DNA of 64,000 nt from Nemertoderma westbladi (Eukaryota > Animalia > Xenacoelomorpha): assembly GCA_032718475.1 (NCBI GenBank), contig JAUCBJ010007687.1, forward strand, positions 1-64,000. The letters are read 5' to 3'. Positions 10,088 through 33,725 of the stretch are shown here, in pieces. How positions within the stretch are numbered: the stretch's first letter is position 1; the number at the start of each line of letters is the position of its first letter. The position numbers and the translations under genes are program-made. The notes beneath the pieces were generated by a model. The model saw only the letters and a list, made by a program, of their open reading frames with translations. It ran no database searches and was not told where the DNA came from.

Positions 10088-10213
10088 TATAGAATTATAT
10101 TCCCTAAATGCCGTGGATTTTCAAAATTTTATTTTATTCGAATTAACTTTGTAAAGATTGCTTTGAGTTCTCATTCGTATTGGTTCTATCTATTATGCAT
10201 CTATCGGTCAGGT

Positions 10214-10300
10214 GGTTCAGTAGCTCAGTTGGTAGAGCGTTGGAAATTATAAGTGTAGTAGGTATCGAGTTCGAATCCTAGTAAGTGCGAATTATTTTTT
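10214..10300 (+). promoter_or_regulatory. tRNA-like Pol III unit (A box, B box, T6 terminator) inside the LTR; second copy at 24832-24918
   Basis: TAGCTCAGTTGGTAGAGC at 10221-10238, GAGTTCGAATCC at 10267-10278, TTTTTT at 10295-10300. Acceptor and anticodon stems pair poorly, so it is not a functional tRNA. Confidence 0.7.
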
Positions 10301-11108
10301 GTGCAGAATTTCAACTCATTTAAATTAACCGCTACAAATTAATTGCATTTGTCTGTACCAATAAGGCTGTAGTTATTTGATTGTAACCAATGTCGTGCAA
10401 GTTATATATTAGCTGGACCAATAAGCTATCTTTAAAACCTTGTTAGAACCCATAGAACAATCGAGAATTTTCTCGATTGATTGCAGCACAAATTTAGTAT
10501 ATAAAGGTGCGATTTCGTTCATTAGTTATCTCAATCTCAATCAATCACTGCAATTTCCATCATTCGCTTTCTGTCTTATTTCAGATTACATTGTTTATTG
10601 TATAATAGTTATTATATGTTTGTAATAAAGTCAGAAATACTAGTCACATCTCTCAGCCTTTCTATCTGTTTTAATATGGTTTCACTACGGTGAACAAACT
10701 CAGGGACAGGATGGCCAGCTAGAGATCGGGCCGCAGCAATGAACGGGAACATCACAGGAATGTAGACGAGAGACAACCCGCAATACCATCTTAGAGTTAT
10801 TCGCCCATCGCCTGAAAGGTTAGACAGCGTTCGATCCTTGCTACCTAAGTGTAAGACCAAAGATCAAAGGTAGACGTAGTGACACGCTGCAAGCCTAAAA
10901 TTACATCATAGGGACTGTACTGTCTTGATTCAGGGAAAACCGCAGTAGACCTTCATATTCCTACGGGGGGGGGAGGAGAGAGAGCAGATACTAGTAAGCA
11001 GATAGGACGTAGGCACACCGGTACAAGGCATACACATTGGTTAGGGTGCAGCAAACTGTACGCTTAACTCTTGCTAAGTACAGGTGTGTGTGCGACTATT
11101 TGCCGTAC

Positions 11109-11365
11109 TAGGATCGGCATGCTGCATTGCAGCTGCATTTTTAAGAATGCTGTGCCGGTTTGTCAACAAAATTGCACCGCCACAACTCCCTATCACCCAT
11201 GACATTTGCTAGATCATCCGCATCTTTAAGGCCAGTGTCCTTTAAGATGCGTCTCAAGAAAGTCATGGGCTGTCCACCATGCTTATTCACTCCATGAGGC
11301 TGCCAAAGTACAAGATTATGCACTGGCTGGTCCTCACGGCGAAAGCAATGTCCTGCAAAGGACTA
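11109..11365 (-). mobile_element. 5'-truncated RTE-like LINE 3' end inserted in the 5' LTR
   Basis: Absent from the 3' LTR, which reads CCGTAC-AACG-GTGTCT. It is the reverse complement of ~35666-35920 and encodes HNLVLWQPHG...LWRCNFVDKPAQHS. Confidence 0.9.
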
Positions 11366-12267
11366 GTGTCTATTACATCAGAACTTGTAGGCTAGAGGGT
11401 TGCTGTGTTTTCACCTGAATTGGGATTGTACCGTTCAGGCGGTAGGGCAGTTTACGCTAGGCGCAAATAAATTGAGGCTATCAGGGATATAATAACATCT
11501 ACCGTGTCCCCGCCAACGCCCTAATAGGAAGTTACCCGGACTACCTGGGTGACTAAAATTCTAGATAGGAGCCAGGATAGCTATTAGTACCCGTACGCCT
11601 ACAGTAGTAAACTAACACATCTCTTCTTAGTATCAGGGACCTGGTACCTAAAATTGCCGAATTCTGGGCGTAGTATTAACCTTATGCCTGAATTTGAGTC
11701 CTGGAAATACGCAAGAGGGGAAGGAACCTTATTATTCGTGAGTATTGGACCTACAAGTTATAAAATTAGAATATTCGTAAAATGCACACCGTACCCAGTA
11801 ATTATATATGTGAAGGAGCAAAACTGTTTTTGACCGATCAGAATTAACACACGCGCGTTAGAAATTATTTACACCTCGAAATATATAAAATTAACTTAGT
11901 CCGTACTGTGCTTTGCCCGCTAGTTAGACATCTCCAAATCTGCTCTATACCTAGCTAGCGTCCCTTTGCCCAACCATATAAATCACACCGCGGCAAAGTA
12001 TACGAGCCCCTTAGTCCGTCAGTGAGTCAGCCTGATTTTAGGATTCGCTGCGCGGGATTTGTTTTATCGAAGTTTGTCTGCTCGTAGACTGTTTTCTGCC
12101 TCACCGGTTAAAAGAGATCGATACTGCAATATATTCGCTTACTTGGGGTTTACTGTTTTGGTGAGAAGGTCGGATTTATGATTTGATTTACAAACTTTAC
12201 AGTAGGATATTGCAGGTATTGTTACCGTCTCTTCCGATAGTAGGAATAGGCGTATCTCTCCAATTTA

Positions 12268-12279
12268 GTAGGAATATGA
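12268..12279 (+). promoter_or_regulatory. Non-tRNA primer-binding site of element 1 (GTAGGAATATGA), complementary to LTR 10953-10964
   Basis: Directly follows the TSD-defined LTR end, has no TGG, and is the exact reverse complement of TCATATTCCTAC. Confidence 0.75.
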
Positions 12280-13110
12280 TTATTTAACATATTTCCTAAT
12301 TTAGTAGGAATATGTTTTACTGAACTACGGTTCGGTAGGACAAAAGTTTTTTGAAAAATTTGTATTTTGAGGTAAAAATTTGTATTTGATTAGCTAAGTG
12401 CTAATTTTTGAAATAAAATTTGATTTGAACCGCGTGTAAAATTTTTTGGAATTGAATACCGGTGTTTAAAAGGGTTTAAATACCATATTGTACCGGTACA
12501 AAAATTTTCGTAAAGTAAAACCTAACTCTTTTGTTTTTTCAGGATTCAGAACTCATTTCTAGGCTGTAACGGGAGCAAGACCGTGTTTAGCAAGTTTGGG
12601 AGATAGATAACTCAACAACTTTGGTTGGGAAAATCGCGTTTCGTCCGCAACGTTAAAAACGGAAAGGTTCACGTTCGGTTTGTATCTGGGAATCTGTTTT
12701 TCTGGAGAATTATTGGAGTGGGTGAGTTCGAAAAGTTGCATAAATAAGTTAGGCATTACCGTATTAGTTAAAATTATTGTGGGTTCCACTGTCTCAAGTA
12801 TTTATGCATTCCGTATGATTTTTTTGTTCATTGCTGAATTAGTCCGTATTATTGTATTTAATTTACCTTTTGATAACGCATATCGTTATCCGATTTATTT
12901 GTTATAAAATTGGCCGCTAGGCTAATTTTATTATATACTTATTCCGTGACATTTATTTGCTGTAAAATTGGCCGTTTAGGCTAATTTTATCCATCTGCTA
13001 TAAAATCGGCCGGTAGGCTAATTTTATAAGACTGTAATTAGTACCGTTTTATACAAATACGGTAAACTCGATACTTTGACACTCACTTCACTTGACTTAC
13101 AACTACCGAA

Positions 13111-13512
13111 ATGAGTGACAAACAAGACTATACGAAGAATACACAAACCGACTATGACTCATGTGACGCGGATAAGTCAGCAGCGGGAGAACAACAGGGG
13201 AAGACTCGCGAGCCTACCGAACCTACACCGTGTGCGTCACCAGTACATCCAACGGGAGTACCGGATGCCGTAGTACGAGGCGACGGCAGGACCGAGGACT
13301 TTCTAACTGTTCCGCAACCTAGATATAGGGAAACGGAATTGGTAAGTTCAGCAGGAAGCACAGAAAGTGTGGTTAGAAGCGTCGGAGGTTACATGGCGCA
13401 TATAACCAGGAGTATTGGAGAAGGCCAACGCATATTAGACGGGTTGACCGCTCCGATGTCTCGATTCGAGTTCTACACCCTCCAGGTTAGAGTAAAGTAT
13501 ATAAGTCCGTAG
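13111..13512 (+). CDS. N-terminal Gag segment of element 1, separated from the main ORF by a -1 frameshift near 13491-13502
   Basis: The frame of ORF 13557 is open back to 13491 (KVYKSVDNLVGLQDLARQRQD-M) and overlaps this ORF. RSVGGYMAHITRSI resembles BEL Gag N-termini. Confidence 0.7.
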   Translation: MSDKQDYTKNTQTDYDSCDADKSAAGEQQGKTREPTEPTPCASPVHPTGVPDAVVRGDGRTEDFLTVPQPRYRETELVSSAGSTESVVRSVGGYMAHITRSIGEGQRILDGLTAPMSRFEFYTLQVRVKYISP

Positions 13513-13556
13513 ATAATTTAGTTGGCTTACAAGATCTAGCTAGACAGAGACAGGAC

Positions 13557-16500
13557 ATGGATACTCAACTTAGAATCCTAGAGAAACTAATGATCACTAG
13601 AGAGAAACTGATTCAGTTTAAGTCGACGATTAGACAGATACAACAGGAACAAGCGGACCAGTTGTTAGGTGAGTCAGTTTCGGACGAATTATTACAACCC
13701 GAGGAAGAACAGGAACTGTACCGACTGGATGGACAATTGAAACACCTGACGGATCACTTGCGCATGTGCGGCGAAGACGTCGGGGATTGGGAAACCGTGC
13801 CGGAGGCTACGAGGGAAACTTCACTCGCACAAATCGAATCGGCACCGGGAATACTAAATCAATCGCTGGTGAGTATTCGTAGCGAAATCTGCGAGGGAAG
13901 TATAGTCACGTCAGAAGTTGCTCGACAACAGCAAGAATTCTGCCGACAACGACGAGAAATGGAGGAACAAGCTCAACTTCTAGTGATGCAGGCAGCAGTA
14001 GAGGAAGAGAAGCTACGCGTTGCGAATATAGCGAGAATCTCTCATCTACAGGAACAAGCTGAATTAGAAGCAGCTGAAGTAGAAAGGTTAGAGGTAGACA
14101 TTGCCCGACAAGCGGCAGCGGCAGCGGCAGAGTCAGAGCGACAAGCGGCAGCGGCAGCGGCAGAGTCAGAGCGACAAGCGGCAGCGGCAGCGGCAGAGTC
14201 AGAGCGACAAGCGGCAGCGGCAGCGGCGGAATTAGAACGAGACAGGTTAGTTTCGGAAGCACGGGCCGAAATGAAAACACGGCAAATAAAAGCTCAATCC
14301 GCCATACGACAAGCAGAATTTGAGGCGCAACAACGACAAACGGAACAACGAGAGAAGACAGCTAAACTTCATTTCGAACTTGAGAAGAAGGCGAGAGAAT
14401 TAGCGAACGCTGAGGAAGATCTGGATCAAAAGGCCCGCGATCGATCGATGAGATCTCGTGACGGACATGATTTGGACCAGTTAGAGGTAAGACATCGCCA
14501 AATTCAGGAACGGAAGAAGGAAGGAAGCGTAGGAGCACCCGGACGGGAACGGCAATTAGTAAAAGACGTGTGTCAACGATTCCCACAGGTAACTCATATG
14601 TTTGCACCGGTTACGACTAAGGAACCTGTTTCGATTGCGGGTAGTAGTGATATTTCTCCTATCCATGGTGCGACGGAACACAGGTTTGTTATTCCGAACG
14701 AGTTTATACCGCCAAGAGCAACGTCGTCGCCTATTCCGAGAGTCAAGGTAAGTAACCCACCGATTACAGATCGTAGTAGTTTATTGACCGGACCTGCGCT
14801 ACTGACGACTAAACAGGTGAGTCCACCTTTGACGCCAAAACCCGTTACGCACTACGATTACCCAATGACGTTTCGACCAACAAGGCCTTTGGATTCAAAT
14901 GCTGTCATTCGCCCACCGTTCAACCAATTTACATCGCAATCTACGACTTCGAGGAAGACTTGTGAGCCTACCGAACAACGGAGAACAGTGGATACGCGAC
15001 CGGTTCAGTTTACATCGCAATCTACGACTTCGAGGAAGACTTGTGAGCCTACCGAACAACGGAGATCAGTGGACGATGTTCCGAAACGAGCCGTTAGAAT
15101 TCGTACGACGCAACGGACGCGAGCACGTCGACCACCATATCCAGATGATAGTACTACTTCGAGCGAATCGGATTACCCGAAACGCGAGGTATTTAGAACA
15201 GGGGCGGCCGATGAATATAAACGCGAGCGTTCAGACAACTCCTTTGCAGACAATCCTCCACAGAATACACCAACACAGAAGGCGTTACAACCAACGGACG
15301 CAATTAGTACACAACAGTTCGCCGACATTCTGCGACCAGTTGTCAATAAGTTGGCTCAGATCGAGGAGCGTCTGGAGGAAGTTCAAACCGACAGTTCGAG
15401 AAATTCCGAATTCGAACACAATAGACACCCGAAGGGACCACAAAGACCGGTACCTTCAAACCCCACATCGTATCAGGGAAAAGCGCCCAGAAGGGAGAAC
15501 ATCAACCAGGTTACCAACCAAGGACGCGAAACTCTGAACGTTGCCGAGGAGATAGCGAAATTCGCAGCCAGACAGGGATTGCCGGTACAACAACCACCGA
15601 AGTTCTCCGGTAGCTCAAAACACTGGCATACCTTCGTAGACTATATTGAATCCCAGATCGCCGTGTGCGCCTTTACGTCACGAGAGAAGTTCAATTACTT
15701 GCTCCAAACGTTGTCAGGAGAACCTAAACGTTTGGCGGAGACTTTCGTTGGTGTACCGGACGCTTTCGAACTAGCGTACGATCGTTTGACTTCGATATAC
15801 GGAGGTACAGTGAGTATGGCCAGGTCAGTAATAGAAGAACTCTGTAAGGGAGGGGCTATCACTAAACCCGTCGACTTACTAAAACTGGCTGACGAGATTA
15901 AGAACGCTATCACTACCTTAAGATCAATTGGACAACTTGATTACGGGAATACACCTACAGTCCTATTAAAGATAATAGGACGACTCCACCATCGACTTCG
16001 TCGGGAGTGGAGGAAGGTCGAATATCAGCGAGAGGAGCGAGGAGGATTCCTGAAATTAGAAGATGTGTACCTTTTAATATCCAGGGAGGCGGTAGTAGAA
16101 ACTCGATCTAACTATACCGACCAGCACATCGTGGCAGAAGGGATCACACTGCCATCCTCCAACCGACAAAAACCCCAGACAACATCCACAAAGACGGCCA
16201 CTTACGCCACACCGACGGAATCAAGACAATTCTCAGACGGTAATAGAGTATCTGCGCCCATTGGAACGAAACAGACGAGACAGCAACTCAGCGCCGACTT
16301 CAACGGATGCCAATACTGCGAACATTTGGGTAAGCGGTATATTGGTCACAAGTTACGAGGTTGTCGACAATTTCGCGAGTTGAACTCAGAAGAACGACGG
16401 CTGCAGATACGGCCACTGGACTCTTGTTGGCGGTGTACGCGACACGGACACGTCCGTAAGGATTGCCCAAATACCGACACTTGTCCATCCTGTGGACGCA

Positions 16501-19500
16501 ACCACGACGGTCTGCTCCACACAGACAGCCACACGCCGACGAAACGCTTCGCCAGGGAACACCCGGAAGCAGCAGCGAGATGTGATGCGGCTTACCGAAA
16601 ACGGGAATCGAAAACGACTCCGACTTTCGTGACCCATATAGAGGATTGCTTTTCAGAACAATCCGGATCATCGGACGAAGAATCAGAAGACGACGAATAT
16701 TCAAATGGAGACGAACAACCGTCAATCGCGCTCCTGACCACTGACCAACTGAAGGGATTCAGTGTAATCCCGATTAAAGTTACTGGCACAAAAGGGAGTA
16801 AGAGGATTTACGCGATTCTAGACTCAGCCTCATCTCACAGTTACGTAGATGAAAAGATAGCTGACGTCGTAACAGATCTTAGACAAGGTAAGCACGTCAG
16901 TTATACAGTAAGTAGTATGCACGGCCAGCGTGCAATACCAGTGACACGAGTTAAGTTGGACTTAGACTCTCTTCTTCCAAAATCGCAGCACAGCGAGAGG
17001 GAGAGGTCTTTGTTGCCCTTTAGAGATTTAACCTTTGCGGCCACGAAGGACTTTAGTAACCTACTAGGTCCAGTGCCGGAACAATCTCTGGAGGACCGTA
17101 AGTATTTCAGACACCTTGGTGTACCCGAATGTCCCGTCAATTATAGATCGGTAGCAATGCTGATCGGGACGGACCAATTCAACCTACATCAGGTGTGGGA
17201 AACCAGACCATCGGCAGTTGTAGCAGGAAACGCATACGCCTGCAGAACGCCGATAGGGTGGTATACTCGAGCGCCTGTGCGCACACTGGACGTAAGTGAC
17301 GAGGAAGACGACGTACAGAGTACATGTAGTTTATTGACTACAAACTCAATTCATTCCTTTTCACACGACGTGAACCATACTACGCTACAGTCGACAAAAC
17401 ATCACAGACGTGTAACTAGTATGATAAGTCACAAGGAGCAGCTAACCCACAAGGTGAGTTTAGAAATTGGGGGGAAGATGAGTCAGCTAGAGATTCCATC
17501 GACGACAGATGATAGGCTTGCGAGTCTACCTACCCCAATAACTTCAACAGTGCCCATCGATATCGACGATGACGCGTTGAAAATTCATCAGTTGGAACAA
17601 GCCGCCTTGGACAAAGAATTAACGGAGAAGACTATCAGGTGGTTAGAACAAGATACAGCTGAACCTGGTAGCTACGACCCTTGTATGTCGGAACAGGAGA
17701 AACAATCTCTAAAGATCATGGAGGATACTATCCGACAGACGGAGGACGGACATTACGAGGTGGGGATGTTATGGCGTAGCCAAAGTCCTAAACTTATAAA
17801 TAACTACCCACTGGCTTTAAGACGTCTACACTCAATCCGACAACGTCTATTAAAGGACGAGAAAGCCCATCTGCAGTATAACACTCAGATGGAGACGTAT
17901 TTGACGAAGGGATACGCTATCCGAATGACTAACCCGGAGCGAGTGACAGACCAGACGTACTACTTGCCACATCACTATGTGAGACATCCCGACAAACCAG
18001 ATAAAGTACGCGTAGTCAATGACTGTGCGGCTCTGTTTGAGGGAATGTCCCTCAATAGTGAATTGATGGATGGACCGAACATGAATAACTATCTTATGGG
18101 GGTGATTATGCGCTTCCGTCAGCGTCAAGTAGCCTTTACTTGCGACGTAGAAGCGATGTTTCACCAAGTGAAAGCGTTAGAGCGAGACAGAGACAGTTTG
18201 CGGTTTCTCTGGTATCCGGAAGGGGACTTAAGTCTACCACCAGCGACTTACCAAATGCAAGTTCGCGTTTTCGGTGCCAGAGACAGCCCGAATTGTACGA
18301 TGTACGCCTTGAAGCAAGCCGCTAGAGATCAGAAACATCTGTATGACCCAGAGATAGTTAGAATTGTAGAACGTGACTTTTACGTTGATGACGGTTTACA
18401 AAGTTGTGACACAGTAGAACGTGCTACAACAGTAGCACATCAATTACGGGACTGCTTGGCGGGCGGAGGTTTTAACCTCACCAAATTCGCCTCAAACAGT
18501 GCCGAATTAGTTGACTCATTCGGAACTACTGAGCGTGGAGGTGGTGATATAGACCTAGAGTTCGAACCACTACCGACGACTAAGGTGTTGGGGCTCTTTT
18601 GGGACCCAAACACAGACAACTTTCGAGTGAAGGTGAGACTGGACAGTCAAGGAGACACACTGACCAAGAGATCATGCTTGTCAAAGTTGAGCCGATTGTT
18701 CGATCCGTTAGGATTCATCAGTCCAGTAATACTGCAAGCTCGCATTTATATGCGCAGTATATGGAAGGATGGACTAACGTGGGACGAGCCGATCTCATCA
18801 GATCAAGTGGACTTATGGAAGACCTGGGAGGCGGAATTGTCTTCGTTAGAGGATTATTCCATACCCAGGGTTTACTTTCCATTACAGAGTACATTTCCTG
18901 ACAACTTGGAACTACACTGTTTTTCTGACGCCAGTGACAACGGTTTTGGTGTGGCAGCGTATTTGCGCAGACAAGTAGAATCAGACGAGTTCGATGTTTC
19001 GCTCATTACTTCCAAGGCTAAGACCATGCCTACTAAGTATATGACGACACCACGAGCCGAGCTACAAGCCGCGACCCTGTCAACCACCATCGTGAACCTC
19101 ATACAGACAGAACTACAGTCGAGTTTACAGATATTTTATTGGACTGACGCGACGTTAGTTTTATTTTACATAAACAACGACACACTCGAATTCAAGACAT
19201 TCGTAGCTAACCGTCGCGCGGAAATTCTAGACCGTTCGATAAAAGAGGATTGGCGACATTGTCCCGGACCACAAAACCCAGCTGATATTGCGTCGCGAGG
19301 AATGATGCCTGAGGAATTCTGTAAACCGGAGAACAAAGAGTTTTGGCAACACGGACCCCAGTTCTTGCAGAAATCGACACAAGATTGGCCTCCGTTATAC
19401 GACAACAAGTCCAACACCATTCCAAAGGACGCCGAAATCAAGAAACCAAAAAAGGGGAAGACAAAGAAAAAGACAACGGCGACAAAACTCAAGAAAAAAC

Positions 19501-21749
19501 CGAAGGCGAAATGGAAAGATATAACTTCAAAGGTCAAGAGAGGAAGACTTGCGAGCCTTTCTACACCAGACATATCGCCAGACGGTCAACCAGACACGTT
19601 ACTAGACAGTCAACCAGACATTTTGCCAGACATATCACAAAATGTTCCACCAGACGTTAGTAACGCACTGACAAACAGTAAAGCCGCAGTTTCCCTATTG
19701 GAGCGGCCTTCTATTGACAAACAACCAGATACGTTACCAGACGTATCGCCAGACACACTACTAGACAGTCGACTAGACACTAGTAATGTATTGACTAACA
19801 ATAAAGCCGCAGTTTCCCTATTGGAGCGGCCTTGTATTGACAAACTACCAATTTTGACACACTTGAGCAACCATAAGCACGGTGAAACCTCATGTATTAC
19901 AGATGTGGGTAGTACCTACGCTAATGTAAATACAGGTGTTACTTTGCGCTCAAGAGACATACCGAACTTGCAACCTATGTCGAAACCTGGGATTAATGTC
20001 GGCAGGAAAATAAGTTTACCGAAACCTGCTGACCCCATAGAGTTCAAACCACCATTAGCGATCGACTTACAAAGTACCGACAATCAAGGTAAGAAGACAA
20101 AGAAGGACAAATTACTTGTAGACCCGGACGGATCAACAGTCAACAAGGGAATACTTACCGGCGGACCCGTGGGCCCTTCTAGTAATTCAAAACCTTCCAA
20201 GTTCTCCATTGACTTACCTGATGACGTCACAAATACTTACGTCGACCGTATTGTAAACTTAACAGATTCTTGGTCAAACGCTTGCCGAAAATTAGCGTGG
20301 ATTGTACGTTTTGTACAATACGTTAAAGGCAAACGTGACTTTACACGTCGACTTACATTGGCTGAGATTGAAAGGTGTGAGATTAAATTAATTCGCCATT
20401 ACCAACTGCGATATTTCGCGCGCGAATTCACATCTATACATCAAGGTCAACCAATCAAGTCGTCACCGATACTGAGTTGGAGTCCGATAATTTATAATGG
20501 CTTAATTTGTCATAAATCTCGGCTTCAAAACATTGACTTTAACACAAACTTTAGGTACCCAATAATAATACCGCAACATCACGAACTACAACGTGCAATG
20601 ATACTGGACGCACATTTACATCTGAAACACGCTGGAAGACACCACTGTCTTTCCTACTTACGTACTAGATTTGTATTAATTAGACCCAGTAAAGCATTAA
20701 GTTCAGTGACACGTACGTGTATTATTTGTAAAAAGGTACATTCTAGAATAGGTACCCAAGAAATGAGTGAACTACCACAAGCACGACTTCAAGCATTCAG
20801 ACCACCTTTTACAGAGACTGGAATTGATTGCTTTGGTCCCATACATACTAAACGTGGACGTATACTAGTAAAACGCTGGGGACTGATTTTCACATGTATG
20901 TCCAGTAGGGCAGTTCACATTGAACGTGTGATGGATCTTTCCACCAACGCGTTTATACTAGCACTGCGGCGATTTATCGCTAGACGCGGACTAGTGAAAT
21001 GCTTGTACTCAGACCAAGGGACAAACTTCGTTGGTGCTCGGAATGAGATCGCTAGAGCCTTTAAGAAATTAGATCACGATCAAATCTCGAACGAACTACA
21101 ACCTCACAAGATTGTTTGGAAGTTTAATCCTCCAGATAGTCCTTGGAGAGGCGGAGTCTGGGAGAGATTGATTAGATCTATAAAGACAGCCATGGCAAAA
21201 GTCATTCCAGTAAACCACATATTAACAGACGACCAACTGACAACATTGTTTGTTGAAATCGAGGCAATACTAAATACTAGACCAATAGTATTAGTACCCG
21301 ATGACAAACAATCTCAGTTCGCTTTAACACCAGCACACCTGCTTATGCAGGCACCGACCACATTGACGCCGATTTCCATTCCAATGGAAAGCGATAGTTA
21401 CGGTAGAAAAGCGTGGAAAATCACGCAACTACTGGCTAACAAATTCTGGGAAATATGGCAAAACCATTATTTGCCCTCTATTTCTGCCAGAACAACATGG
21501 TACAATAACACCCGTGCATTAAAGCCGGGAGATCACGTGCTGTTGGCAGAAGTGAATCTGAAAAGACGCTTCTGGATAACAGGTGTCATTTTAGCCACAC
21601 ATCCATCTATGGATGGAGTGACAAGAACTGTGACGGTACGGACAATTGACGGTCGTACAGTAGACAGACCGACTCAACGTCTCGTACTCCTTGAAGAGAC
21701 TCGTAACGAGTCTGGAGATTACAAATCTCCACCTAATACTAGTAAATAA
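13557..21749 (+). CDS. BEL/Pao Gag-Pol polyprotein (2730 aa)
   Basis: Capsid-like PKFSG...EKFNYLLQTLSGEP; three Zn knuckles (CQYC..H..C, CWRC..GH...C, CPSC..HDGLLH); protease AILDSAS; RT YYLPHH...RVVND...DVEAMFHQ...FYVDD; RNase H LHCFSDAS...PRAELQAA...WTDA...NPADIASRG; integrase H..HAG...CIIC, GIDCFG, SDQGTNF, WERLIRSIK. Confidence 0.97.
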   Translation: MDTQLRILEKLMITREKLIQFKSTIRQIQQEQADQLLGESVSDELLQPEEEQELYRLDGQLKHLTDHLRMCGEDVGDWETVPEATRETSLAQIESAPGILNQSLVSIRSEICEGSIVTSEVARQQQEFCRQRREMEEQAQLLVMQAAVEEEKLRVANIARISHLQEQAELEAAEVERLEVDIARQAAAAAAESERQAAAAAAESERQAAAAAAESERQAAAAAAELERDRLVSEARAEMKTRQIKAQSAIRQAEFEAQQRQTEQREKTAKLHFELEKKARELANAEEDLDQKARDRSMRSRDGHDLDQLEVRHRQIQERKKEGSVGAPGRERQLVKDVCQRFPQVTHMFAPVTTKEPVSIAGSSDISPIHGATEHRFVIPNEFIPPRATSSPIPRVKVSNPPITDRSSLLTGPALLTTKQVSPPLTPKPVTHYDYPMTFRPTRPLDSNAVIRPPFNQFTSQSTTSRKTCEPTEQRRTVDTRPVQFTSQSTTSRKTCEPTEQRRSVDDVPKRAVRIRTTQRTRARRPPYPDDSTTSSESDYPKREVFRTGAADEYKRERSDNSFADNPPQNTPTQKALQPTDAISTQQFADILRPVVNKLAQIEERLEEVQTDSSRNSEFEHNRHPKGPQRPVPSNPTSYQGKAPRRENINQVTNQGRETLNVAEEIAKFAARQGLPVQQPPKFSGSSKHWHTFVDYIESQIAVCAFTSREKFNYLLQTLSGEPKRLAETFVGVPDAFELAYDRLTSIYGGTVSMARSVIEELCKGGAITKPVDLLKLADEIKNAITTLRSIGQLDYGNTPTVLLKIIGRLHHRLRREWRKVEYQREERGGFLKLEDVYLLISREAVVETRSNYTDQHIVAEGITLPSSNRQKPQTTSTKTATYATPTESRQFSDGNRVSAPIGTKQTRQQLSADFNGCQYCEHLGKRYIGHKLRGCRQFRELNSEERRLQIRPLDSCWRCTRHGHVRKDCPNTDTCPSCGRNHDGLLHTDSHTPTKRFAREHPEAAARCDAAYRKRESKTTPTFVTHIEDCFSEQSGSSDEESEDDEYSNGDEQPSIALLTTDQLKGFSVIPIKVTGTKGSKRIYAILDSASSHSYVDEKIADVVTDLRQGKHVSYTVSSMHGQRAIPVTRVKLDLDSLLPKSQHSERERSLLPFRDLTFAATKDFSNLLGPVPEQSLEDRKYFRHLGVPECPVNYRSVAMLIGTDQFNLHQVWETRPSAVVAGNAYACRTPIGWYTRAPVRTLDVSDEEDDVQSTCSLLTTNSIHSFSHDVNHTTLQSTKHHRRVTSMISHKEQLTHKVSLEIGGKMSQLEIPSTTDDRLASLPTPITSTVPIDIDDDALKIHQLEQAALDKELTEKTIRWLEQDTAEPGSYDPCMSEQEKQSLKIMEDTIRQTEDGHYEVGMLWRSQSPKLINNYPLALRRLHSIRQRLLKDEKAHLQYNTQMETYLTKGYAIRMTNPERVTDQTYYLPHHYVRHPDKPDKVRVVNDCAALFEGMSLNSELMDGPNMNNYLMGVIMRFRQRQVAFTCDVEAMFHQVKALERDRDSLRFLWYPEGDLSLPPATYQMQVRVFGARDSPNCTMYALKQAARDQKHLYDPEIVRIVERDFYVDDGLQSCDTVERATTVAHQLRDCLAGGGFNLTKFASNSAELVDSFGTTERGGGDIDLEFEPLPTTKVLGLFWDPNTDNFRVKVRLDSQGDTLTKRSCLSKLSRLFDPLGFISPVILQARIYMRSIWKDGLTWDEPISSDQVDLWKTWEAELSSLEDYSIPRVYFPLQSTFPDNLELHCFSDASDNGFGVAAYLRRQVESDEFDVSLITSKAKTMPTKYMTTPRAELQAATLSTTIVNLIQTELQSSLQIFYWTDATLVLFYINNDTLEFKTFVANRRAEILDRSIKEDWRHCPGPQNPADIASRGMMPEEFCKPENKEFWQHGPQFLQKSTQDWPPLYDNKSNTIPKDAEIKKPKKGKTKKKTTATKLKKKPKAKWKDITSKVKRGRLASLSTPDISPDGQPDTLLDSQPDILPDISQNVPPDVSNALTNSKAAVSLLERPSIDKQPDTLPDVSPDTLLDSRLDTSNVLTNNKAAVSLLERPCIDKLPILTHLSNHKHGETSCITDVGSTYANVNTGVTLRSRDIPNLQPMSKPGINVGRKISLPKPADPIEFKPPLAIDLQSTDNQGKKTKKDKLLVDPDGSTVNKGILTGGPVGPSSNSKPSKFSIDLPDDVTNTYVDRIVNLTDSWSNACRKLAWIVRFVQYVKGKRDFTRRLTLAEIERCEIKLIRHYQLRYFAREFTSIHQGQPIKSSPILSWSPIIYNGLICHKSRLQNIDFNTNFRYPIIIPQHHELQRAMILDAHLHLKHAGRHHCLSYLRTRFVLIRPSKALSSVTRTCIICKKVHSRIGTQEMSELPQARLQAFRPPFTETGIDCFGPIHTKRGRILVKRWGLIFTCMSSRAVHIERVMDLSTNAFILALRRFIARRGLVKCLYSDQGTNFVGARNEIARAFKKLDHDQISNELQPHKIVWKFNPPDSPWRGGVWERLIRSIKTAMAKVIPVNHILTDDQLTTLFVEIEAILNTRPIVLVPDDKQSQFALTPAHLLMQAPTTLTPISIPMESDSYGRKAWKITQLLANKFWEIWQNHYLPSISARTTWYNNTRALKPGDHVLLAEVNLKRRFWITGVILATHPSMDGVTRTVTVRTIDGRTVDRPTQRLVLLEETRNESGDYKSPPNTSK
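14106..14228 (+). repeat. 33-bp coding tandem repeat (RQAAAAAAESE, ~3.7 copies) in the Gag coiled-coil region
   Basis: CGACAAGCGGCAGCGGCAGCGGCAGAGTCAGAG is repeated in tandem. Confidence 0.9.
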
Positions 21750-22407
21750 TTAGGAGTTTACAAATAGATTTCCACGTACCTGTACACCGTAGTAAGGACA
21801 GCGGTAGAATTCCATTGTCTTTATATGTGAACATTGAGGGTAGTACCCTTATGTGTCACATAGGAGCGGGATTTGTAGGTATAAGAAATGGAATTCTACT
21901 TGGAACTCACAATATTGAGACATTTTCGAAATTTTAGACAATCCATTTGGATTTGAAAAATTTTTAAAATTTTCTCCAGTGAATAGATTTCAGGGTACAG
22001 TCGGGTGGAACTTAAAATTAGAGAAACAAGAGAGGAAGACTTGCGAGCCTTTCTTAAAATTTTTAATTAAATTTTACACGGTCTTGTTTCAATAAGTTAC
22101 GTCAAAATAGACTCCCCTATATTTATTACTAATTCTTGATTGCTTATTTTCTGATAATAGTTTGGGATCAAAAGGTGAGTATTTTAGACTCACGGCCAGT
22201 TTAGCCCAAATTCGTTTTTATTTCGGCAAAAATTTTAGATAAGAAGCAGCGTGTCATTAAAGAAACCCTAGATCTTAGGCTATGGGTAGGAGGTTAGAGC
22301 GTTGTCGAGCCCAAAGGGCAGACGAAACTCTCACGTCTCCTCACAACTAACTACAAACTCTGTTGTATTCCCTCTAGTAGTAATGATTATGTAACTACAC
22401 CCTAATT

Positions 22408-24110
22408 ATGGAGAAAGGGATACAAGGAGAGCCGAGATGGGGATATGATATCCAAGAGGAGGCAGCAGCGCCATTCGAAAGATTTGGAGCCAAGGATTAT
22501 ACTATATTTGGTATAAAGGAATTATCAGAAAGTACAGCGAAGCTCGCAAAGACAGCAATGCCTTTACTCGAGCAGGATTTAGCATATTTCGAGACGTGTA
22601 TCTTCGCTGTGCGGGATCTCTTATCGAAAGACCATCTATGTTTACATTGTTACCCTATGAAGGAGAACGTATTGTGGAAATTACGGATGAATCACGGCAG
22701 ACGCGCGCACCTATCGGTCACCTCGGTGATGATTTCAACGTAACTACTACGATCGCCGACGATCCTTTAGAGGAACTTCTTGAGATAGAAAGGAACCTCC
22801 CGAAGAAATCTCAGACGGAGATTCGACAACTTGAAGCAACAGATGCTATAGTTTGCATACAACCTTCAGAAACCTACCAACCCATAGACCCAGATGATTA
22901 CGATTATAGTGTGGGAGGAAGCGCTCGACCGATTGGAGATCTTATATACGAACGAGTGTGGTACCCTGCTAATACGATGTGTAGTAAATGTGGCGTCGCT
23001 GGACATCATATGGCAAAGTGCAGTGGAAAGCACATTACTACGACTCAGCTAATCTGTGGATGGTGTGGGGATCAAGGGTCTCATACCTTTTATACTTGCT
23101 GGAGATTTATGGCTCAGTGTACTTACTGCAATATAAAGGGACATCGAGCATCTGAATGCCAACTGAGAGATATACCTTATGAACACGAATCTGTAAAACT
23201 TGTGAGGAAGTTATTTGATGAGTGGGAAGATTTAGCCGATGAACATGTATCAGCACAAAGAAGACGGTTTCCGATGAGAGCGCATCTCGGATTTTGGGCG
23301 GTAAATCCTCAAACGATGATGTCGGAAGGATATATCTCCGCTATGCCCCAATATGACGAACTTATCGAGGTTGTTGATATTTTGCCCCACGACAGCGGAT
23401 TCCGAGTGGTGCGCGAGTATCTGTTACAGATTCACCCGGATAACAAAAACACGTGGAATTTTCAGAAAGTCGTAAATCGTATCACGTATGGTGAATTTGA
23501 TCGTTTCCGAACCGAAAAGCGGAATAAAGGAGCTTGGTTAACCGTCGCATGGGCGTACCGAGCCGCGTTTTACCACAAACGTATACGAGCGAGCGTATTC
23601 GAGGAAGAAGAGGTCCTAGAGGCGACGAATATACCAGCCACTCCGGTTGCGCCGTCTGCACGTCACCCTCGGGAGGACGGGCAGGGTAGGATCATACGGG
23701 TCCAGAAGGTGGGCCAACAATTAAAGAAAATTATTAATGTAGAAGAACGCAAGGGAGTTGAGCCGACCATTCGAGTTACTCGGGATACGGTATCACTTCC
23801 AAGAGAACCAGTAGGAGGATCGGGACATACACCAGCTGATCAACAGGGGGCGCAAGCTACTCTTGGGTCTGCGTCGTCCGCTTCTCACGCGTTCCCAGAC
23901 GTTCTACCAACTGTAGCGACAACTGATCGGTCACGAGGAATTGGTCGAGGTTTTGGGATGCCAAATAGACGAATTTGCGAGGAAATAGTTGCACCGTCTC
24001 TCAACGTCCCAAGTAAACCAGTGACTCGCCCCATTAGTCCCATATCGCGAGCAAAGTCACCTGTGCGCAGTTTTCGAGGACGCGGCAGGGCTCGATCAAC
24101 TAAGCGATAA
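22408..24110 (+). CDS. Accessory 3' ORF2 of element 1: triple zinc-knuckle protein with a basic RG tail; 22408-22743 and 22596-24110 are probably joined by a -1 frameshift near 22620
   Basis: CSKCGVAGHHMAKC, CGWCGDQGSHTFYTC and CTYCNIKGHRASEC; C-terminus RGRGRARSTKR. It lies between pol and the PPT and shows no signal peptide or transmembrane segment, so it is not env-like. Confidence 0.8.
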
Positions 24111-24705
24111 AAGGGAGGGCAAGGGTGGACGGAAGACTCGTGGGCCTTTCTTATGATTTGTGATTTATTTTGAATTATATGTTTTATATTTAGAAAACTT
24201 ATGCAATTTGTATTGTTCCGAATTTATGAAATTTAGAAAGTTTAGAAGGAACTTATATTTGAAAGATTTATGTTTCATATTTGAGATGCAAAGGTTTATA
24301 TTATTCTAAACTTATGCAGTTTATATCTATATTTAGTAAGACTACCCAAAAGAGAGTTTATATTTGTAAGAATTTATATTTATATTTGTAATTATTCCAA
24401 ACTTATGCAATCTACATTTAGGTACGAAAGTATTTGTAATTACTTGAATTTATGCAATATCTGAGATGCAATAGATTTATATTGGTGAATTTAATTTAGA
24501 TTTATATTGTACTTACTTGTAAAGCCTTAAATACGTAAAGTTTAAATTTGTAATTATTTTGTATCGAATCATTACGTAGAAAGGAAGTATTGTTTGAAAT
24601 TTAATTGTAAATATGTAAGTACGCCCTAAGTATTCTATAGTTTGATTGATTATTGGTGAAAACCGTATATTTTATGGACAATAATATCCTGTTTTCATGG
24701 AGCGG

Positions 24706-27594
24706 TATAGAATTATATTCCCTAAATGCCGTGGATTTTCAAAATTTTATTTTATTCGAATTAACTTTGTAAAGATTGCTTTGAGTTCTCATTCGTATTG
24801 GTTCTATCTATTATGCATCTATCGGTCAGGTGGTTCAGTAGCTCAGTTGGTAGAGCGTTGGAAATTATAAGTGTAGTAGGTATCGAGTTCGAATCCTAGT
24901 AAGTGCGAATTATTTTTTGTGCAGAATTTCAACTCATTTAAATTAACCGCTACAAATTAATTGCATTTGTCTGTACCAATAAGGCTGTAGTTATTTGATT
25001 GTAACCAATGTCGTGCAAGTTATATATTAGCTGGACCAATAAGCTATCTTTAAAACCTTGTTAGAACCCATAGAACAATCGAGAATTTTCTCGATTGATT
25101 GCAGCACAAATTTAGTATATAAAGGTGCGATTTCGTTCATTAGTTATCTCAATCTCAATCAATCACTGCAATTTCCATCATTCGCTTTCTGTCTTATTTC
25201 AGATTACATTGTTTATTGTATAATAGTTATTATATGTTTGTAATAAAGTCAGAAATACTAGTCACATCTCTCAGCCTTTCTATCTGTTTTAATATGGTTT
25301 CACTACGGTGAACAAACTCAGGGACAGGATGGCCAGCTAGAGATCGGGCCGCAGCAATGAACGGGAACATCACGGGAATGTAGACGAGAGACAACCCGCA
25401 ATACCATCTTAGAGTTATTCGCCCATCGCCTGAAAGGTTAGACAGCGTTCGATCCTTGCTACCTAAGTGTAAGACCAAAGATCAAAGGTAGACGTAGTGA
25501 CACGCTGCAAGCCTAAAATTACATCATAGGGACTGTACTGTCTTGATTCAGGGAAAACCGCAGTAGACCTTCATATTCCTACGGGGGGGGGAGGAGAGAG
25601 AGCAGATACTAGTAAGCAGATAGGACGTAGGCACACCGGTACAAGGCATACACATTGGTTAGGGTGCAGCAAACTGTACGCTTAACTCTTGCTAAGTACA
25701 GGTGTGTGTGCGACTATTTGCCGTACAACGGTGTCTATTACATCAGAACTTGTAGGCTAGAGGGTTGCTGTGTTTTCACCTGAATTGGGATTGTACCGTT
25801 CAGGCGGTAGGGCAGTTTACGCTAGGCGCAAATAAATTGAGGCTATCAGGGATATAATAACATCTACCGTGTCCCCGCCAACGCCCTAATAGGAAGTTAC
25901 CCGGACTACCTGGGTGACTAAAATTCTAGATAGGAGCCAGGATAGCTATTAGTACCCGTACGCCTACAGTAGTAAACTAACACATCTCTTCTTAGTATCA
26001 GGGACCTGGTACCTAAAATTGCCGAATTCTGGGCGTAGTATTAACCTTATGCCTGAATTTGAGTCCTGGAAATACGCAAGAGGGGAAGGAACCTTATTAT
26101 TCGTGAGTATTGGACCTACAAGTTATAAACGAGACTTAGAGTCAATGACCCCCCCCCACCTCTCCACAAACTCACATTAGTTATATTTAATTGTTTTCCT
26201 TTTATAGTCGCACATCAATATTTATTTTTATCGCATTTTATCTTATTTTACTTATCTACTTATTTTTCACTTGATCTACTTATTTTTATGTAACTTACAG
26301 TATAATCTCTTACCAATCGTTCGTATTTTTAAATAGACCCAAATGGTGCAACTGTTATTTCTTAAATAATCCAATTCATATGCAATATTTTATTTTAATT
26401 AAATCCATCAGTTCTACATACCAAACTGTTTCTATACAACGATTTTATCGAATATTTTAATTTTATTTTATATTTTATTTTAACCCTTAAAGCTTAAACT
26501 GTGTACTTATTTTCTCATCGTGTAGTGTTAGCTAATCCATGTAAATTTAAGTGTTCAAATGTCTTGATCTATTTTACATACCGTACTGTTTTTATAGCTA
26601 TGGATTATCTGATATTTTAAATTAATTTTATATTTTATTTTAACCCTTAAACTATCGATATTAGCCCTAACCGATATACTTGTATCCGATTTTATCGACT
26701 GATATGTAACTTTCGGTGTATACTCGTGATACTATATAGACTGTCATTTTATTGAATTTGTTTAGTAATTCTAATGTATATTTGTAATTTGCTGTGTATA
26801 CTCGTGATTTTATAGACGTCACTTCAACCCTTTAGCAAGCAAGACATTTTATTAGTAACCATTTTTATAAGAACACTATTTTAATTTAACTGCGTCCTTT
26901 TATGTTTCAATTGTTTTATATATGTTTTTGTCATTGTTTCGTAAACATGGTCGGTATTGGTCGCAGTACTTAATTACTTACCGGTACTGTTACAATTACT
27001 TTCAGTTGGACTTTCTTTTGGTGTGTACGGGTTCCATAAGCATTAGCTTTCTTATACCCAAACTATTAAACATTAAACATTAAACATTAAAATTAGAATA
27101 TTCGTAAAATGCACACCGTACCCAGTAATTATATATGTGAAGGAGCAAAACTGTTTTTGACCGATCAGAATTAACACACGCGCGTTAGAAATTATTTACA
27201 CCTCGAAATATATAAAATTAACTTAGTCCGTACTGTGCTTTGCCCGCTAGTTAGACATCTCCAAATCTGCTCTATACCTAGCTAGCGTCCCTTTGCCCAA
27301 CCATATAAATCACACCGCGGCAAAGTATACGAGCCCCTTAGTCCGTCAGTGAGTCAGCCTGATTTTAGGATTCGCTGCGCGGGATTTGTTTTATCGAAGT
27401 TTGTCTGCTCGTAGACTGTTTTCTGCCTCACCGGTTAAAAGAGATCGATACTGCAATATATTCGCTTACTTGGGGTTTACTGTTTTGGTGAGAAGGTCGG
27501 ATTTATGATTTGATTTACAAACTTTACAGTAGGATATTGCAGGTATTGTTACCGTCTCTTCCGATAGTAGGAATAGGCGTATCTCTCCAATTTA
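24706..27594 (+). repeat. 3' LTR of element 1, containing a ~960-bp insertion
   Basis: Starts TATAGAATTATATTCCC after GGAGCGG and ends CTCTCCAATTTA before the GTGGT TSD and the resumed satellite. Confidence 0.95.
26130..27087 (+). mobile_element. Non-LTR retroelement 3' end (L2/CR1-group-like) inserted in the 3' LTR
   Basis: Absent from the 5' LTR and AT-rich. Ends in a stem-loop GGGTTCCATAAG...CTTATACCC and a (CATTAAA)n tail. TAAA is duplicated at 26126-26129 and 27088-27091. Confidence 0.7.
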
Positions 27595-30409
27595 GTGGTT
27601 TATAAATTCGCCCGTGTTTGTTCTTTGTTTTGTGGTTTATAAATTCGCCCGTGTTTGTTCTTTGTTGTGTGGTTGATAAATTCGCCCGTGTTTGTTCTTT
27701 GTTTTGTGGTTTATAAATTCGCCCGTGTTTGTTCTTTGTTGTGTGGTTGATAAATTCGCCCGTGTTTGTTCTTTGTTGTGTGGTTTATAAATTCGCCCGT
27801 GTTTGTTCTTTGTTTTGTGGTTTATAAATTCGCCCGTGTTTGTTCTTTGTTTTGTGGTTTATAAATTCGCCCGTGTTTGTTCTTTGTTGTGTGGTTTATA
27901 AATTCGCCCGTGTTTGTTCTTTGTTGTGTGGTTTATAAATTCGCCCGTGTTTGTTCTTTGTTTTGTGGTTGATAAATTCGCCCGTGTTTGTTCTTTGTTG
28001 TGTGGTTTATAAATTCGCCCGTATTTGTTCTTTGTTTTGTGGTTGATAAATTCGCCCGTGTTTGTTCTTTGTTGTGTGGTTTATAAATTCGCCCGTGTTT
28101 GTTCTTTGTTTTGTGGTTTATAAATTCGCCCGTGTTTGTTCTTTGTTGTGTGGTTTATAAATTCGCCTGTGTTTGTTCTTTGTTGTGTGGTTTATAAATT
28201 CGCCCGTATTTGTTCTTTGTTTTGTGGTTTATAAATTCGCTCGTGTTTGTTCTTTGTTTTGTGGTTTATAAATTCGCCCGTGTTTGTTCTTTGTTGTGTG
28301 GTTTATAAATTCGCCCGTGTTTGTTCTTTGTTTTGTGGTTTATAAATTCGCCCGTGTTTGTTCTTTGTTTTGTGGTTTATAAATTCGCCCGTGTTTATTC
28401 TTTGTTTTGTGGTTTATAAATTCGCCCGTGTTTGTTCTTTGTTGTGTGGTTTATAAATTCGCCCGTGTTTGTTCTTTGTTTTGTGGTTGATAAATTCGCC
28501 CGTGGTTGTTCTTTGTTGTGTGGTTGATAAATTCGCCCGTGTTTATTCTTTGTTTTGTGGTTTATAAATTCGCCCGTGTTTGTTCTTTGTTTTGTGGTTT
28601 ATAAATTCTCCCGTGTTTGTTCTTTGTTGTGTGGTTAATAAATTCGCCCGTGTTTGTTCTTTGTTTTGTGGTTTATAAATTCGCCCGTGTTTGTTCTTTG
28701 TTGTGTGGTTTATAAATTCGCCCGTGTTTGTTCTTTGTTGTGTGGTTTATAAATTCGCCCGTGTTTGTTTTTTGTCTTGTGGTTTATAAATTCGCCAGTG
28801 TTTGTTCTTTGTTTTGTAGTTGATAAATTCGCCCGTGTTTGTTCTTTGTTGTGTGGTTTATAAATTCGCCCGTGTTTGTTCTTTGTTGTGTGGTTTATAA
28901 ATTCGCCCGTGTTTGTTCTTTGTTGTGTGGTTTATAAATTCGCCCGTGTTTGTTCTTTGTTGTGTGGTTTATAAATTCGCCCGTGTTTGTTCTTTGTTGT
29001 GTGGTTTATAAATTCGCCCGTGTTTGTTCTTTGTTTTGTGGTTTATAAATTCGCCCGTGTTTGTTCTTTGTTGTGTGGTTTATAAATTCGCCCGTGTTTG
29101 TTCTTTGTTGTGTGGTTTATAAATTCGCCCGTGTTTGTTCTTTGTTTTGTGGTTTATAAATTCGCCCGTGTTTGTTCTTTGTTGTGTGGTTTATAAATTC
29201 GCCCGTGTTTGTTCTTTGTTGTGTGGTTTATAAATTCGCCCGTGTTTGTTCTTTGTTGTGTGGTTTATAAATTCGCCCGTGTTTGTTCTTTGTTGTGTGG
29301 TTTATAAATTCGCCCGTGTTTGTTCTTTGTTGTGTGGTTTATAAATTCGCCCGTGTTTGTTCTTTGTTGTGTGGTTTATAAATTCGCCCGTGTTTGTTTT
29401 TTGTCTTGTGGTTTATAAATTCGCCAGTGTTTGTTCTTTGTTTTGTAGTTGATAAATTCGCCCGTGTTTGTTCTTTGTTGTGTGGTTTATAAATTCGCCC
29501 GTGTTTGTTCTTTGTTGTGTGGTTGATAAATTCGCCCGTGTTTATTCTTTGTTTTGTGGTTTATAAATTCGCCCGTGTTTGTTCTTTGTTTTGTGGTTTA
29601 TAAATTCTCCCGTGTTTGTTCTTTGTTGTGTGGTTAATAAATTCGCCCGTGTTTGTTCTTTGTTTTGTGGTTTATAAATTCGCCCGTGTTTGTTCTTTGT
29701 TGTGTGGTTTATAAATTCGCCCGTGTTTGTTCTTTGTTGTGTGGTTTATAAATTCGCCCGTGTTTGTTTTTTGTCTTGTGGTTTATAAATTCGCCAGTGT
29801 TTGTTCTTTGTTTTGTAGTTGATAAATTCGCCCGTGTTTGTTCTTTGTTGTGTGGTTTATAAATTCGCCCGTGTTTGTTCTTTGTTGTGTGGTTTATAAA
29901 TTCGCCCGTGTTTGTTCTTTGTTGTGTGGTTTATAAATTCGCCCGTGTTTGTTCTTTGTTTTGTGGTTGATAAATTCGCCCGTGGTTGTTCTTTGTTGTG
30001 TGGTTGATAAATTCGCCCGTGTTTATTCTTTGTTTTGTGGTTTATAAATTCGCCCGTGTTTGTTCTTTGTTTTGTGGTTTATAAATTCTCCCGTGTTTGT
30101 TCTTTGTTGTGTGGTTAATAAATTCGCCCGTGTTTGTTCTTTGTTTTGTGGTTTATAAATTCGCCCGTGTTTGTTCTTTGTTTTGTGGTTTATAAATTCG
30201 CCCGTGTTTGTTCTTTGTTTTGTGGTTTATAAATTCGCCCGTGTTTGTTCTTTGTTGTGTGGTTTGTAAATTCGCCCGTGTTTGTTCTTTGTTTTGTGTT
30301 TTATAAATTCGCCCGTGTTTGTTCTTTGTTTTGTGGTTTGTAAATTCGCCCGTGTTTGTTCTTTGTTGTGTGGTTTTTAAATTCGCCCGTGTTTGTTCTT
30401 TGTTGTGTG
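27595..30409. repeat. 37-bp satellite, right arm (~76 units)
   Basis: Same unit as the left arm, resuming in register after the TSD. Confidence 0.98.
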
Positions 30410-32666: not shown

Positions 32667-33725
32667 CTAAAAATAATAATTAACAGTTTACATAATATGT
32701 TTTAACTTTATCATTTTTAACAATTTAACATAATCCCCCATATTTACGAAGTGATAGATATGGTGGTACTGAGCGTGATCTGCCGATTTTACAAAACTCG
32801 GGGAACAAGTCCTATTGGCTATACTGTAGTTGTTTCTATACTAATAAACATCCAATCACGGAAACGCATTTGAACTGTAAAACTGTATTCTAGTAAACTT
32901 TGAATTTATATTTTGTTCCTTTTTCTGTGCTAAACATTTTTTACATAAAATAAGGTCAGCTAATAAAAAAAGTAATACGGATAAAAAATACTGCATAGTA
33001 CAACATTAAACAGTTATGCAGTAGCACTCTTATGAGACATGTATTGTATAGGCCTACAGTACTGTACTACTGTACAAAAAAGCCTCTTCTGTCCTGTCTC
33101 TGACTGTAGCCTACAGCCCAACTCTCTTTTTTTTTCAATTCAATAATTTTATTTTTCCTCCTGTATATAGAAATGTTAGTAATTGCACTTGACATTATTA
33201 ATTCTGTAAGTATAGCCTTAATTGTAAATTGTAGAAATTCTTAACTACTGTACAATGTATACTGACTACCGTAGATAGCGTGTAGCTTAAACAGTTAAAA
33301 GGCTAGTTATAGTGGGTCGCAGTCTCACAAATAAGGGATTCTTTTAGATATAAACTTTGTCACTCCTCCTACTGCTAAATATGTTTATGTGAGAGGGAAA
33401 ATAATATAAAAAAAGGAGACAGGGGGGAAACTGGACGCAAAACCCGCCTTGACGAATTAATATCCCGCCTCAATGTTAAATTCTCAATTTAGGGAAAAGA
33501 GCAGGTTACAGTGGCACGTTATTTAACCAAAACAATAAACTAAGCAAAATAGAACAGGTTACAGTTTTATTTTTGAAAGTATTCAACTGTTATTTGCGTC
33601 GAATTTCCCCTGGAGAGGGATACATTTTTATTTTTATTACGTCCCCCCTATCTGAAAAAAAGTAAATTAATACTGGAATTAATACAATTGTCAATAAATA
33701 GGCAGTTAGTAGATTTTTCACCAAC

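Follow-up and report, generated by a model that had tools for sequence, protein, structure and literature searches.

VANDAL elements are Mutator-like DNA transposons, and in these plant transposons self-encoded, sequence-specific counter-silencing is already established. VANC binds DNA at a short motif specific to the family and relieves entire elements of silencing, and the VANDAL motifs are 8–9 nt long, lie in non-coding tandem repeats and act on DNA methylation (PMC5735166). Here we describe a palindromic 20-bp motif, the dyad, dispersed through element 1, a BEL/Pao long terminal repeat (LTR) retrotransposon at positions 10088–27594 of a 64-kb stretch of DNA from Nemertoderma westbladi (contig JAUCBJ010007687.1, positions 1 to 64,000; hereafter the window), which also contains two sister BEL/Pao elements, 2 and 3. 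Like the VANDAL/VANC system, element 1 combines a family-specific repeated short motif with an extra element-encoded gene, and the motif differs or is absent in sister families; it departs from that system in that the motif is a 20-bp dispersed dyad with five of seven copies in coding linkers, and in that the host shows little CpG depletion. On the best reading the motif would work in a VANC-like manner, yet element 1 is not a member of the VANC system, the tandem non-coding arrangement being missing.

The profile of the virus taxonomy committee ICTV gives BEL/Pao elements a length of 4.2–10 kb and LTRs of 0.2–1.2 kb, ranges that are descriptive and not diagnostic, together with a polypurine tract (PPT) of about 10 nt and a primer site, 18 nt long, whose sequence complements tRNA-Arg or tRNA-Gly, and it calls their replication poorly understood (PMC8742986). 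Element 1 is a BEL/Pao element by its domains and structure: it has LTRs, the gag-protease-reverse transcriptase (RT)-RNase H-integrase order, Pao-specific Pfam families, a PPT, a target-site duplication and an animal host. It is atypical in size (17.5 kb, with an LTR core of about 1.9 kb), in its TA..TA ends and in its primer site, no tRNA-type site being seen, and it differs further in carrying a homologue-less knuckle-containing open reading frame (ORF2) in the env position and the dispersed dyad. Titles and abstract openings, in which subscription journals are mostly uncovered, yielded no description of a dispersed dyad in BEL/Pao elements.

CERV of Cer1 is an accessory export factor that an LTR element makes from spliced RNA (PMC10309623). 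Element 1 shares with Cer1 CERV and HIV Rev an accessory cysteine-containing protein, with splicing of the ORF2 RNA suggested here by one GT..AG contig joint; a repeated cis motif does not appear in the available descriptions of those systems, and element 1 has one copy outside the intron. Among retroviral nucleocapsid proteins, that of HIV-1 attaches to two Gs, the second and the fourth, in GGAG and GGUG tetraloops (PMC7599994) and that of Rous sarcoma virus (RSV) binds the UGCG tetraloop of stem loop SL-C (PMC5035970). An N-G-N-G centre, self-complementarity and CCHC knuckle proteins are common to element 1 and the packaging loops so described (HIV SL2/SL3, RSV SL-C), but those loops lie in the 5' leader, whereas the dyads are spread over 11 kb and their stem is marginal. 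Sireviruses are also LTR retrotransposons with symmetric repeated motifs, some of them before an extra ORF, and with more than one PPT; they are, however, plant Ty1/copia elements whose motifs cluster in the LTRs and before env and not across pol linkers (PMC2829016).

A dispersed dyad in element 1

The original prediction described a 17-nt hairpin-like motif, GGAAGACTYGYGRGCCT, repeated six times across element 1. Exact copies were found at 13199, 14953, 15034, 19542, 22034 and 24131, just where they had been placed and all on the + strand, and the highest count in 100 shuffles was 0; this control is generous, since the pattern was derived from the very copies counted. Allowing up to three mismatches gave eight matches, namely the six copies, the reverse reading of 13199 and a new match at 17514–17530 (−). 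The true unit is a 20-bp dyad, GRWAGRCT-YGYG-RGYCTWYC, longer than the motif first described. When the 64-kb window was scanned with GRWAGRCT-N4-RGYCTWYC, seven copies were returned at 0 mismatches and still seven at one mismatch, with starts at 13199, 14953, 15034, 17511, 19542, 22034 and 24131, all within element 1. When dispersed 16- and 18-mers were sought without a preset pattern, the dyad family came out at the top in element 1 (6–7 clusters), and the best family in elements 2 and 3 reached four clusters at most. Two-mismatch dyads at 20634 and 39078/61601 were treated as chance matches, about 0.7 being expected by a hand estimate.

Five of the seven copies are coding, four in gag-pol and one in an upstream ORF, and the two non-coding copies flank ORF2 on either side. 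Copy 1 (13199–13218, +, centre CGCG) is read as KTREP, copy 2 (14953–14972, +, centre TGTG) is read as KTCEP, and copy 3 (15034–15053, +) is the tandem duplicate of copy 2. Copy 4 (19542–19561, +, centre TGCG) lies in the RNase H-integrase linker and is read as GRLASL, and the new copy 7 (17511–17530, −) lies in the protease-RT linker, where it reads DRLASL. Copy 5 (22034–22053, +) is non-coding and has a 9-bp direct repeat on its flanks; copy 6 (24131–24150, +, centre CGTG) is also non-coding, 21 nt past the ORF2 stop and outside the candidate intron described below. The different reading frames and the non-coding positions on both sides of ORF2 had been predicted correctly, as had the 28 identical nucleotides shared by copies 19542 and 22034 (from 19535 and 22027) and the origin of two copies, 14953 and 15034, in a single tandem duplication (14925–14992 and 15006–15073, 81-bp offset, 68 nt at 97%). 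Leaving aside the two tandem copies and the pair 19542/22034, the edges of the dyad are sharp: copies share 0–2 nt of 5' flank and 0–4 nt of 3' flank.

Conservation within the dyad is symmetric. Pairs 1/20, 4/17, 5/16 and 7/14 are invariant over the seven copies and pair 8/13 has one variant; variation is found at pairs 2/19, 3/18 and 6/15 and in the centre, and the sole Watson-Crick swap is at 3/18 in copy 17511. This copy has three differences from copy 1 when inverted, and at least five from any copy as written. Sense-strand centres are YGYG in 7/7 copies, with both Gs invariant and UGCG the commonest (3/7). Symmetric invariance of this kind has the look of the half-sites of a homodimer.

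The four gag-pol copies sit where 0, 0, 19–21 and 1 of 120 homologues align, and the dyad copies are confined to linkers mostly absent from relatives or to non-coding DNA. The LTRs and the 5' leader carry none, there being no copy between 10088 and 13198. Six of the seven copies fall within the candidate intron and 24131 is in the 3' untranslated region (UTR), and hence also in the spliced RNA, an arrangement other than the intron-only response element of the Rev/CERV type. With the tandem pair merged, the gaps between copies are 1754, 2558, 2031, 2492 and 2097 nt (coefficient of variation 0.15), more regular than uniform placement (P = 7e-4) or placement within unaligned sequence (P = 4e-4), in a test that is post hoc and sensitive to how copies are counted.

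Several other identities for the motif were considered and set aside. An internal PPT was ruled out, the PPT core of element 1, GGAGCGG, being different from the motif; CpG decay was rejected as the chief source of C/T variation in the centre, as CpG is not depleted; and resemblance to p53, CSL/Su(H), SMAD and BANP sites, compared by eye, amounted to a partial fit only.

Conservation and breakpoints around the dyad

Conservation in relatives proved to be mixed: the motif is absent from the two distant relatives in the window, while contigs of the element 1 family match at the dyad and diverge beside it. Elements 2 and 3 and the rest of the window, which cover one sister family, contain no exact or one-mismatch copies. 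The two sister elements show 26–42% protein identity to element 1 and a common gag-pol layout, with no homology to ORF2. Viral contigs contained no related loci and no exact matches to a 20-nt pattern, and the search for related metagenome loci gave one 1.3-kb contig at 29% identity, which was set aside.

Copy 5 is contained in a nearly invariant non-coding block at 21985–22105 (+). The number of substitution sites at 3% or more was 0, 1 and 0 of 121 in sequencing runs X1, X4 and X3, where the counts at 10% or more over the whole element would lead one to expect 5.2, 5.9 and 3.7; besides the single substitution, one single-base gap is listed. The substitution is a T-to-C change at the first centre position, a state found in other copies. 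In a diverged X4 contig, 4/116 letters differ within the block versus 23/189 just upstream (P = 0.011). The occurrence of the same nucleotides in two frames and in non-coding DNA, the sharp edges and the conserved block around 22034 all support the prediction of a cis signal at the nucleotide level.

Contig breakpoints also gather at the dyad. Among 64 distinct listed breakpoints, tool-selected from about 960, five are no more than 4 nt away from a dyad edge (0.65 expected, P = 5e-4) and three exactly on an edge (0.07 expected). They include loose contig ends to either side of copy 24131 in run X3 and, in X4, a joint from 24474 to 22034 at about a third of the local depth; it follows from this joint that many copies of the family carry an additional motif or a rearrangement at that place. 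Together, the breakpoints at dyad edges and this joint indicate that the dyad occurs in other contexts in the family and its relatives. In those contexts it may be either a conserved island or a breakpoint, and misplacement of contigs between copies contributes.

ORF2 and the competing readings of the dyad

ORF2 (22449–24110, +) comprises 553 codons from stop to stop, or 490 amino acids from the ATG at 22638, and has three CCHC knuckles, a helical region predicted at low confidence and an Arg-rich tail. A candidate intron at 12722–22377 (+), with a good donor, G/GTGAGT, and a good acceptor, having a pyrimidine tract and AG, would on removal give an ORF2 RNA. One contig, in one of four runs (X3, which is not recorded as RNA), carries a GT..AG joint from 12720 to 22377, and splicing of the ORF2 RNA is therefore likely, judged from genomic signals and this joint. 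No homologue of ORF2 was found among 7997 scored candidates; a comparison with 1.84 billion representatives gave two matches only, one to the knuckles and one to a repetitive protein, and the PDB gave nothing below E = 0.05, just weak nucleocapsid-knuckle and chance matches. An ORF of 111 codons (22408–22743), immediately downstream of the candidate splice acceptor, is in a different frame from ORF2, with which it overlaps, and has no Pfam match.

With a probability of roughly 0.45, we favor the reading that a dimeric protein, likely the ORF2 product, uses the dyad as a double-stranded DNA site specific to this family, and that the dyad was spread by template switching and is kept by selection in a VANC-like way. 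We base this preference on the symmetric invariance, the near absence of compensatory change, the persisting mismatches, the sharp edges and the one copy that fits best when inverted. The poor folding of the sense RNA, the regular gaps, the placement of coding copies where few homologues align, the conserved block, the joint absence of motif and ORF2 homology from elements 2 and 3, and the VANC precedent also speak for it. New copies would arise via short template switches during reverse transcription, of which the 28-nt identity between 19542 and 22034 and the 9-bp direct repeat around 22034 would be traces, and would survive only in linkers and UTRs. Selection would then retain one dyad about every 2–2.5 kb, and the bound protein would cover the 12-kb internal region. 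ORF2 is the natural candidate for the dimeric binder; its product would keep the whole element transcribable, for example by resisting silencing within satellite chromatin, a role like that of VANC in VANDAL transposons.

A number of observations weigh against this interpretation. ORF2 has no recognized double-stranded DNA-binding domain, its matches being to CCHC knuckles only; its single-sequence fold is uninformative (predicted local distance difference test score 38); and the CCHC knuckles of retroviral nucleocapsid proteins bind single strands (PMC7599994). The pairing of motif and ORF2 is known from one positive and one negative family. The LTR promoter has no dyad copy, and all sense centres show YGYG, the loop pattern that retroviral knuckles bind. 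The conserved block, at 121 nt, is longer than the motif, its sole listed substitution falls inside the motif, and a stretch so short may recruit fewer diverged contigs. The regularity of spacing weakens to P = 0.10 without 17511, to 0.053 when the tandem pair is counted as two and to 0.028 with a possible eighth copy. Finally, the ratio of observed to expected CpG is 1.17 in the internal region (1.04–1.17 across element 1) and 0.74–1.05 in host DNA; as CpG is not depleted, any silencing that is opposed is probably not DNA methylation.

The serious rival is an RNA signal, which we consider possible although the less probable of the two. Here a Y-G-Y-G loop on a labile stem would be recognized by the knuckles of ORF2 or Gag, or would pair with the same site on a second genome, and the unspliced RNA would in this way be singled out to be exported, coated, linked into dimers or packaged, in the manner of Rev/CERV or of the Psi/DIS elements. 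The invariant Gs of the sense centres reproduce the knuckle-loop pattern of HIV-1 and RSV nucleocapsid, the one variant listed at copy 22034 preserves YGYG, ORF2 supplies three knuckles and a basic tail, six of the seven copies lie in the candidate intron, and CERV of Cer1 offers the precedent of a spliced accessory export protein. Non-canonical pairs also occur, G.U at five dyad positions and A.C at two, although not significantly so. Copy-copy duplexes of −8 to −30 kcal/mol are far stronger than the copies' own folds, as for any palindrome: the self-duplexes, at −8 to −24 kcal/mol, compare with a background value of −8.9 ± 4.5, and between 17511 and each of the other copies the duplex reaches −25 to −30 kcal/mol. 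The hairpin itself fared poorly. In 13 folds of 35-nt windows (seven sense, six antisense) none was convincingly beyond shuffles, with z from −1.6 to +1.4, and the sense hairpins, at −0.4 to −2.9 kcal/mol, failed the test of stability for a packaging hairpin; with 40-nt flanks the closing-pair probability stayed at or below 0.14 in 6/7 copies, with 90-nt flanks it stayed at or below 0.05 in 6/7, copy 22034 alone forming the hairpin (0.72), and the 121-nt block folded with z = 0.02. The UGCG hairpin that had been named for 19542 and 22034 can be drawn, but it is not the predicted fold in 35-nt windows. An A.C mismatch persists in the inner stem of 6/7 copies, A.A mismatches persist in the stem as well, copy 24131 is present in the spliced RNA too, and the leader and LTRs, as noted, have no copy; the hairpin-like packaging role proposed originally is thus weakly supported. 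Dimer linkage, for its part, would not need the identical sequence at every site, and in RSV a change of UGCG to GAGA left specific Gag binding unreduced (PMC5035970).

That the dyad is a by-product which, by pausing reverse transcriptase or favoring template switching, multiplies into sites that tolerate it and marks the ends of deletions while the element gains nothing, we regard as unlikely. The same 28-nt identity and 9-bp repeat that would trace the spread of a DNA site fit this explanation, as do the excess of breakpoints at dyad edges, the joint from 24474 to 22034 and weak hairpins on some antisense strands. However, neither the symmetric invariance nor the regular gaps nor the conserved block is predicted by it; hairpins of the dyad in DNA reach just 0 to −1.7 kcal/mol; and the breakpoints are a tool-selected set in which contigs with repeated motifs can be placed on the wrong copy. 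Protein-level repetition, in which RLASL would be a linker motif or a cleavage motif, KT.EPTE a Gag motif and the non-coding copies leftovers, is highly improbable and was rejected. Copies 17511 and 19542 do both encode RLASL in inter-domain linkers, differing at third positions, and 13199 and 14953 have 4 nt of 3' flank in common; the same nucleotides, though, are used in two reading frames and in two non-coding copies, and RLA[SV]L occurs in 3/120 homologues, at unrelated positions, and KT[RC][EG]P in 0/120.

A fuller proposal is that an animal LTR retrotransposon has its own protein-site pair, a spliced knuckle-containing ORF2 and a 20-bp palindrome about every 2 kb, coding linkers included, that shields a 17-kb element from host silencing. 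If true, this would give plant VANC an equivalent among animal retroelements; we hold it to be slightly less probable than the RNA signal. A short, sharply bounded, family-specific site beside an orphan accessory gene poses a directly testable question, DNA or RNA. It also suggests that regulatory sites can reside in the long 'junk' linkers found in the polyproteins of giant retrotransposons. Were the dyad a mere by-product, it would be a modest example of template-switch turnover.

The host element and its surroundings

The Pao-specific domains of element 1 are DUF1759, Peptidase_A17, Integrase_H2C2 (under its cut-off) and DUF5641, and its gag-protease-RT-RNase H-integrase order is that of the Metaviridae. 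Homologues number 1048 at E ≤ 1e-30, of which the best 120 show 36–44% identity over the region searched. The element measures 17,507 bp including insertions in its LTRs, which exceeds the range in the ICTV profile. The 5' LTR (10088–12267, +) consists of a core of ~1.9 kb and an inserted repeat of ~257 bp, with termini TA..TA; the 3' LTR (24706–27594, +) has an AT-rich insertion of ~958 bp at about 26130–27087. Three blocks of the LTR pair are 99.9–100% identical, and the 5-bp target-site duplication GTGGT is found at 10083–10087 (+) and 27595–27599, inside an array of a 37-bp satellite; element 1 is therefore a young copy. Its family is apparently high-copy in organism A, as judged from the depth summed over contigs, a measure distinct from copy number. 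The TA..TA termini of element 1 replace the usual TG..CA; the element 2 LTR starts with TGTA and apparently ends with TA.

No tRNA-type primer site was seen past the 5' LTR of element 1, the primer-binding-site position (12268–12279, +) having no TGG start; its 12 nt are complementary to LTR positions 10953–10964. Such an LTR-complementary primer region is reminiscent of Tf1 self-priming. The primer position of element 2 is likewise without TGG, but has no LTR complement of 8 nt or more. A tRNA-like A-box and B-box can be picked out by eye in both LTRs (about 10210–10290 and 24830–24910), where ARAGORN and Rfam made no call; across element 1 Rfam gave no matches at E ≤ 5 and ARAGORN no genes.

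Downstream of the primer position, an upstream ORF of 133 codons (13111–13512, +) overlaps gag-pol in another frame, the gag region being interrupted in this copy. The gag-pol frame (13491–21749, +; 2752 codons stop to stop) encodes DUF1759, three knuckle-like motifs, protease, RT, Peptidase_A17 and integrase, and an Ala-rich Gag repeat is common to elements 1, 2 and 3. The PPT core GGAGCGG (24699–24705, +) adjoins the 3' LTR, and element 2 has the same core. An internal copy of this core is present at 21863–21869 (+) in element 1, and all three elements have one between pol and the 3' region (21863, about 38010 on the − strand, and about 62708), possibly a central plus-strand primer or a relic of module capture.

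Elements 2 (35919–49934, −) and 3 (about 52150–63000, +) are inverted relatives, 83–92% identical. The 199-bp LTR blocks of element 2 are identical, yet its gag-pol contains several stops. An extra ORF before the 3' LTR of element 2 (36196–37337, −) is in three pieces, with no knuckles and a basic tail; Pfam gives nothing for it at E < 0.1, and tblastn does not match it to ORF2 of element 1. A repeat of ~256 bp, whose ends are CTAG and which has a short hairpin at its terminus, is located at 11105–11360 in the 5' LTR of element 1, and further copies border element 2 on both sides (35666–35921 and 49935–50125).

The 37-bp satellite into which element 1 inserted extends over 1257–10096 and 27595–30409, with 239 and 76 copies at a 95–96% match. 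A cysteine-rich repetitive ORF of 393 codons at 31498–32679 (−) has a 15-bp repeat and no Pfam family. At 489–962 lies a host gene for pterin-4a-carbinolamine dehydratase, for which none of the best 120 matches is close; they are 42–69% identical, and those that are named come from diverse animals.

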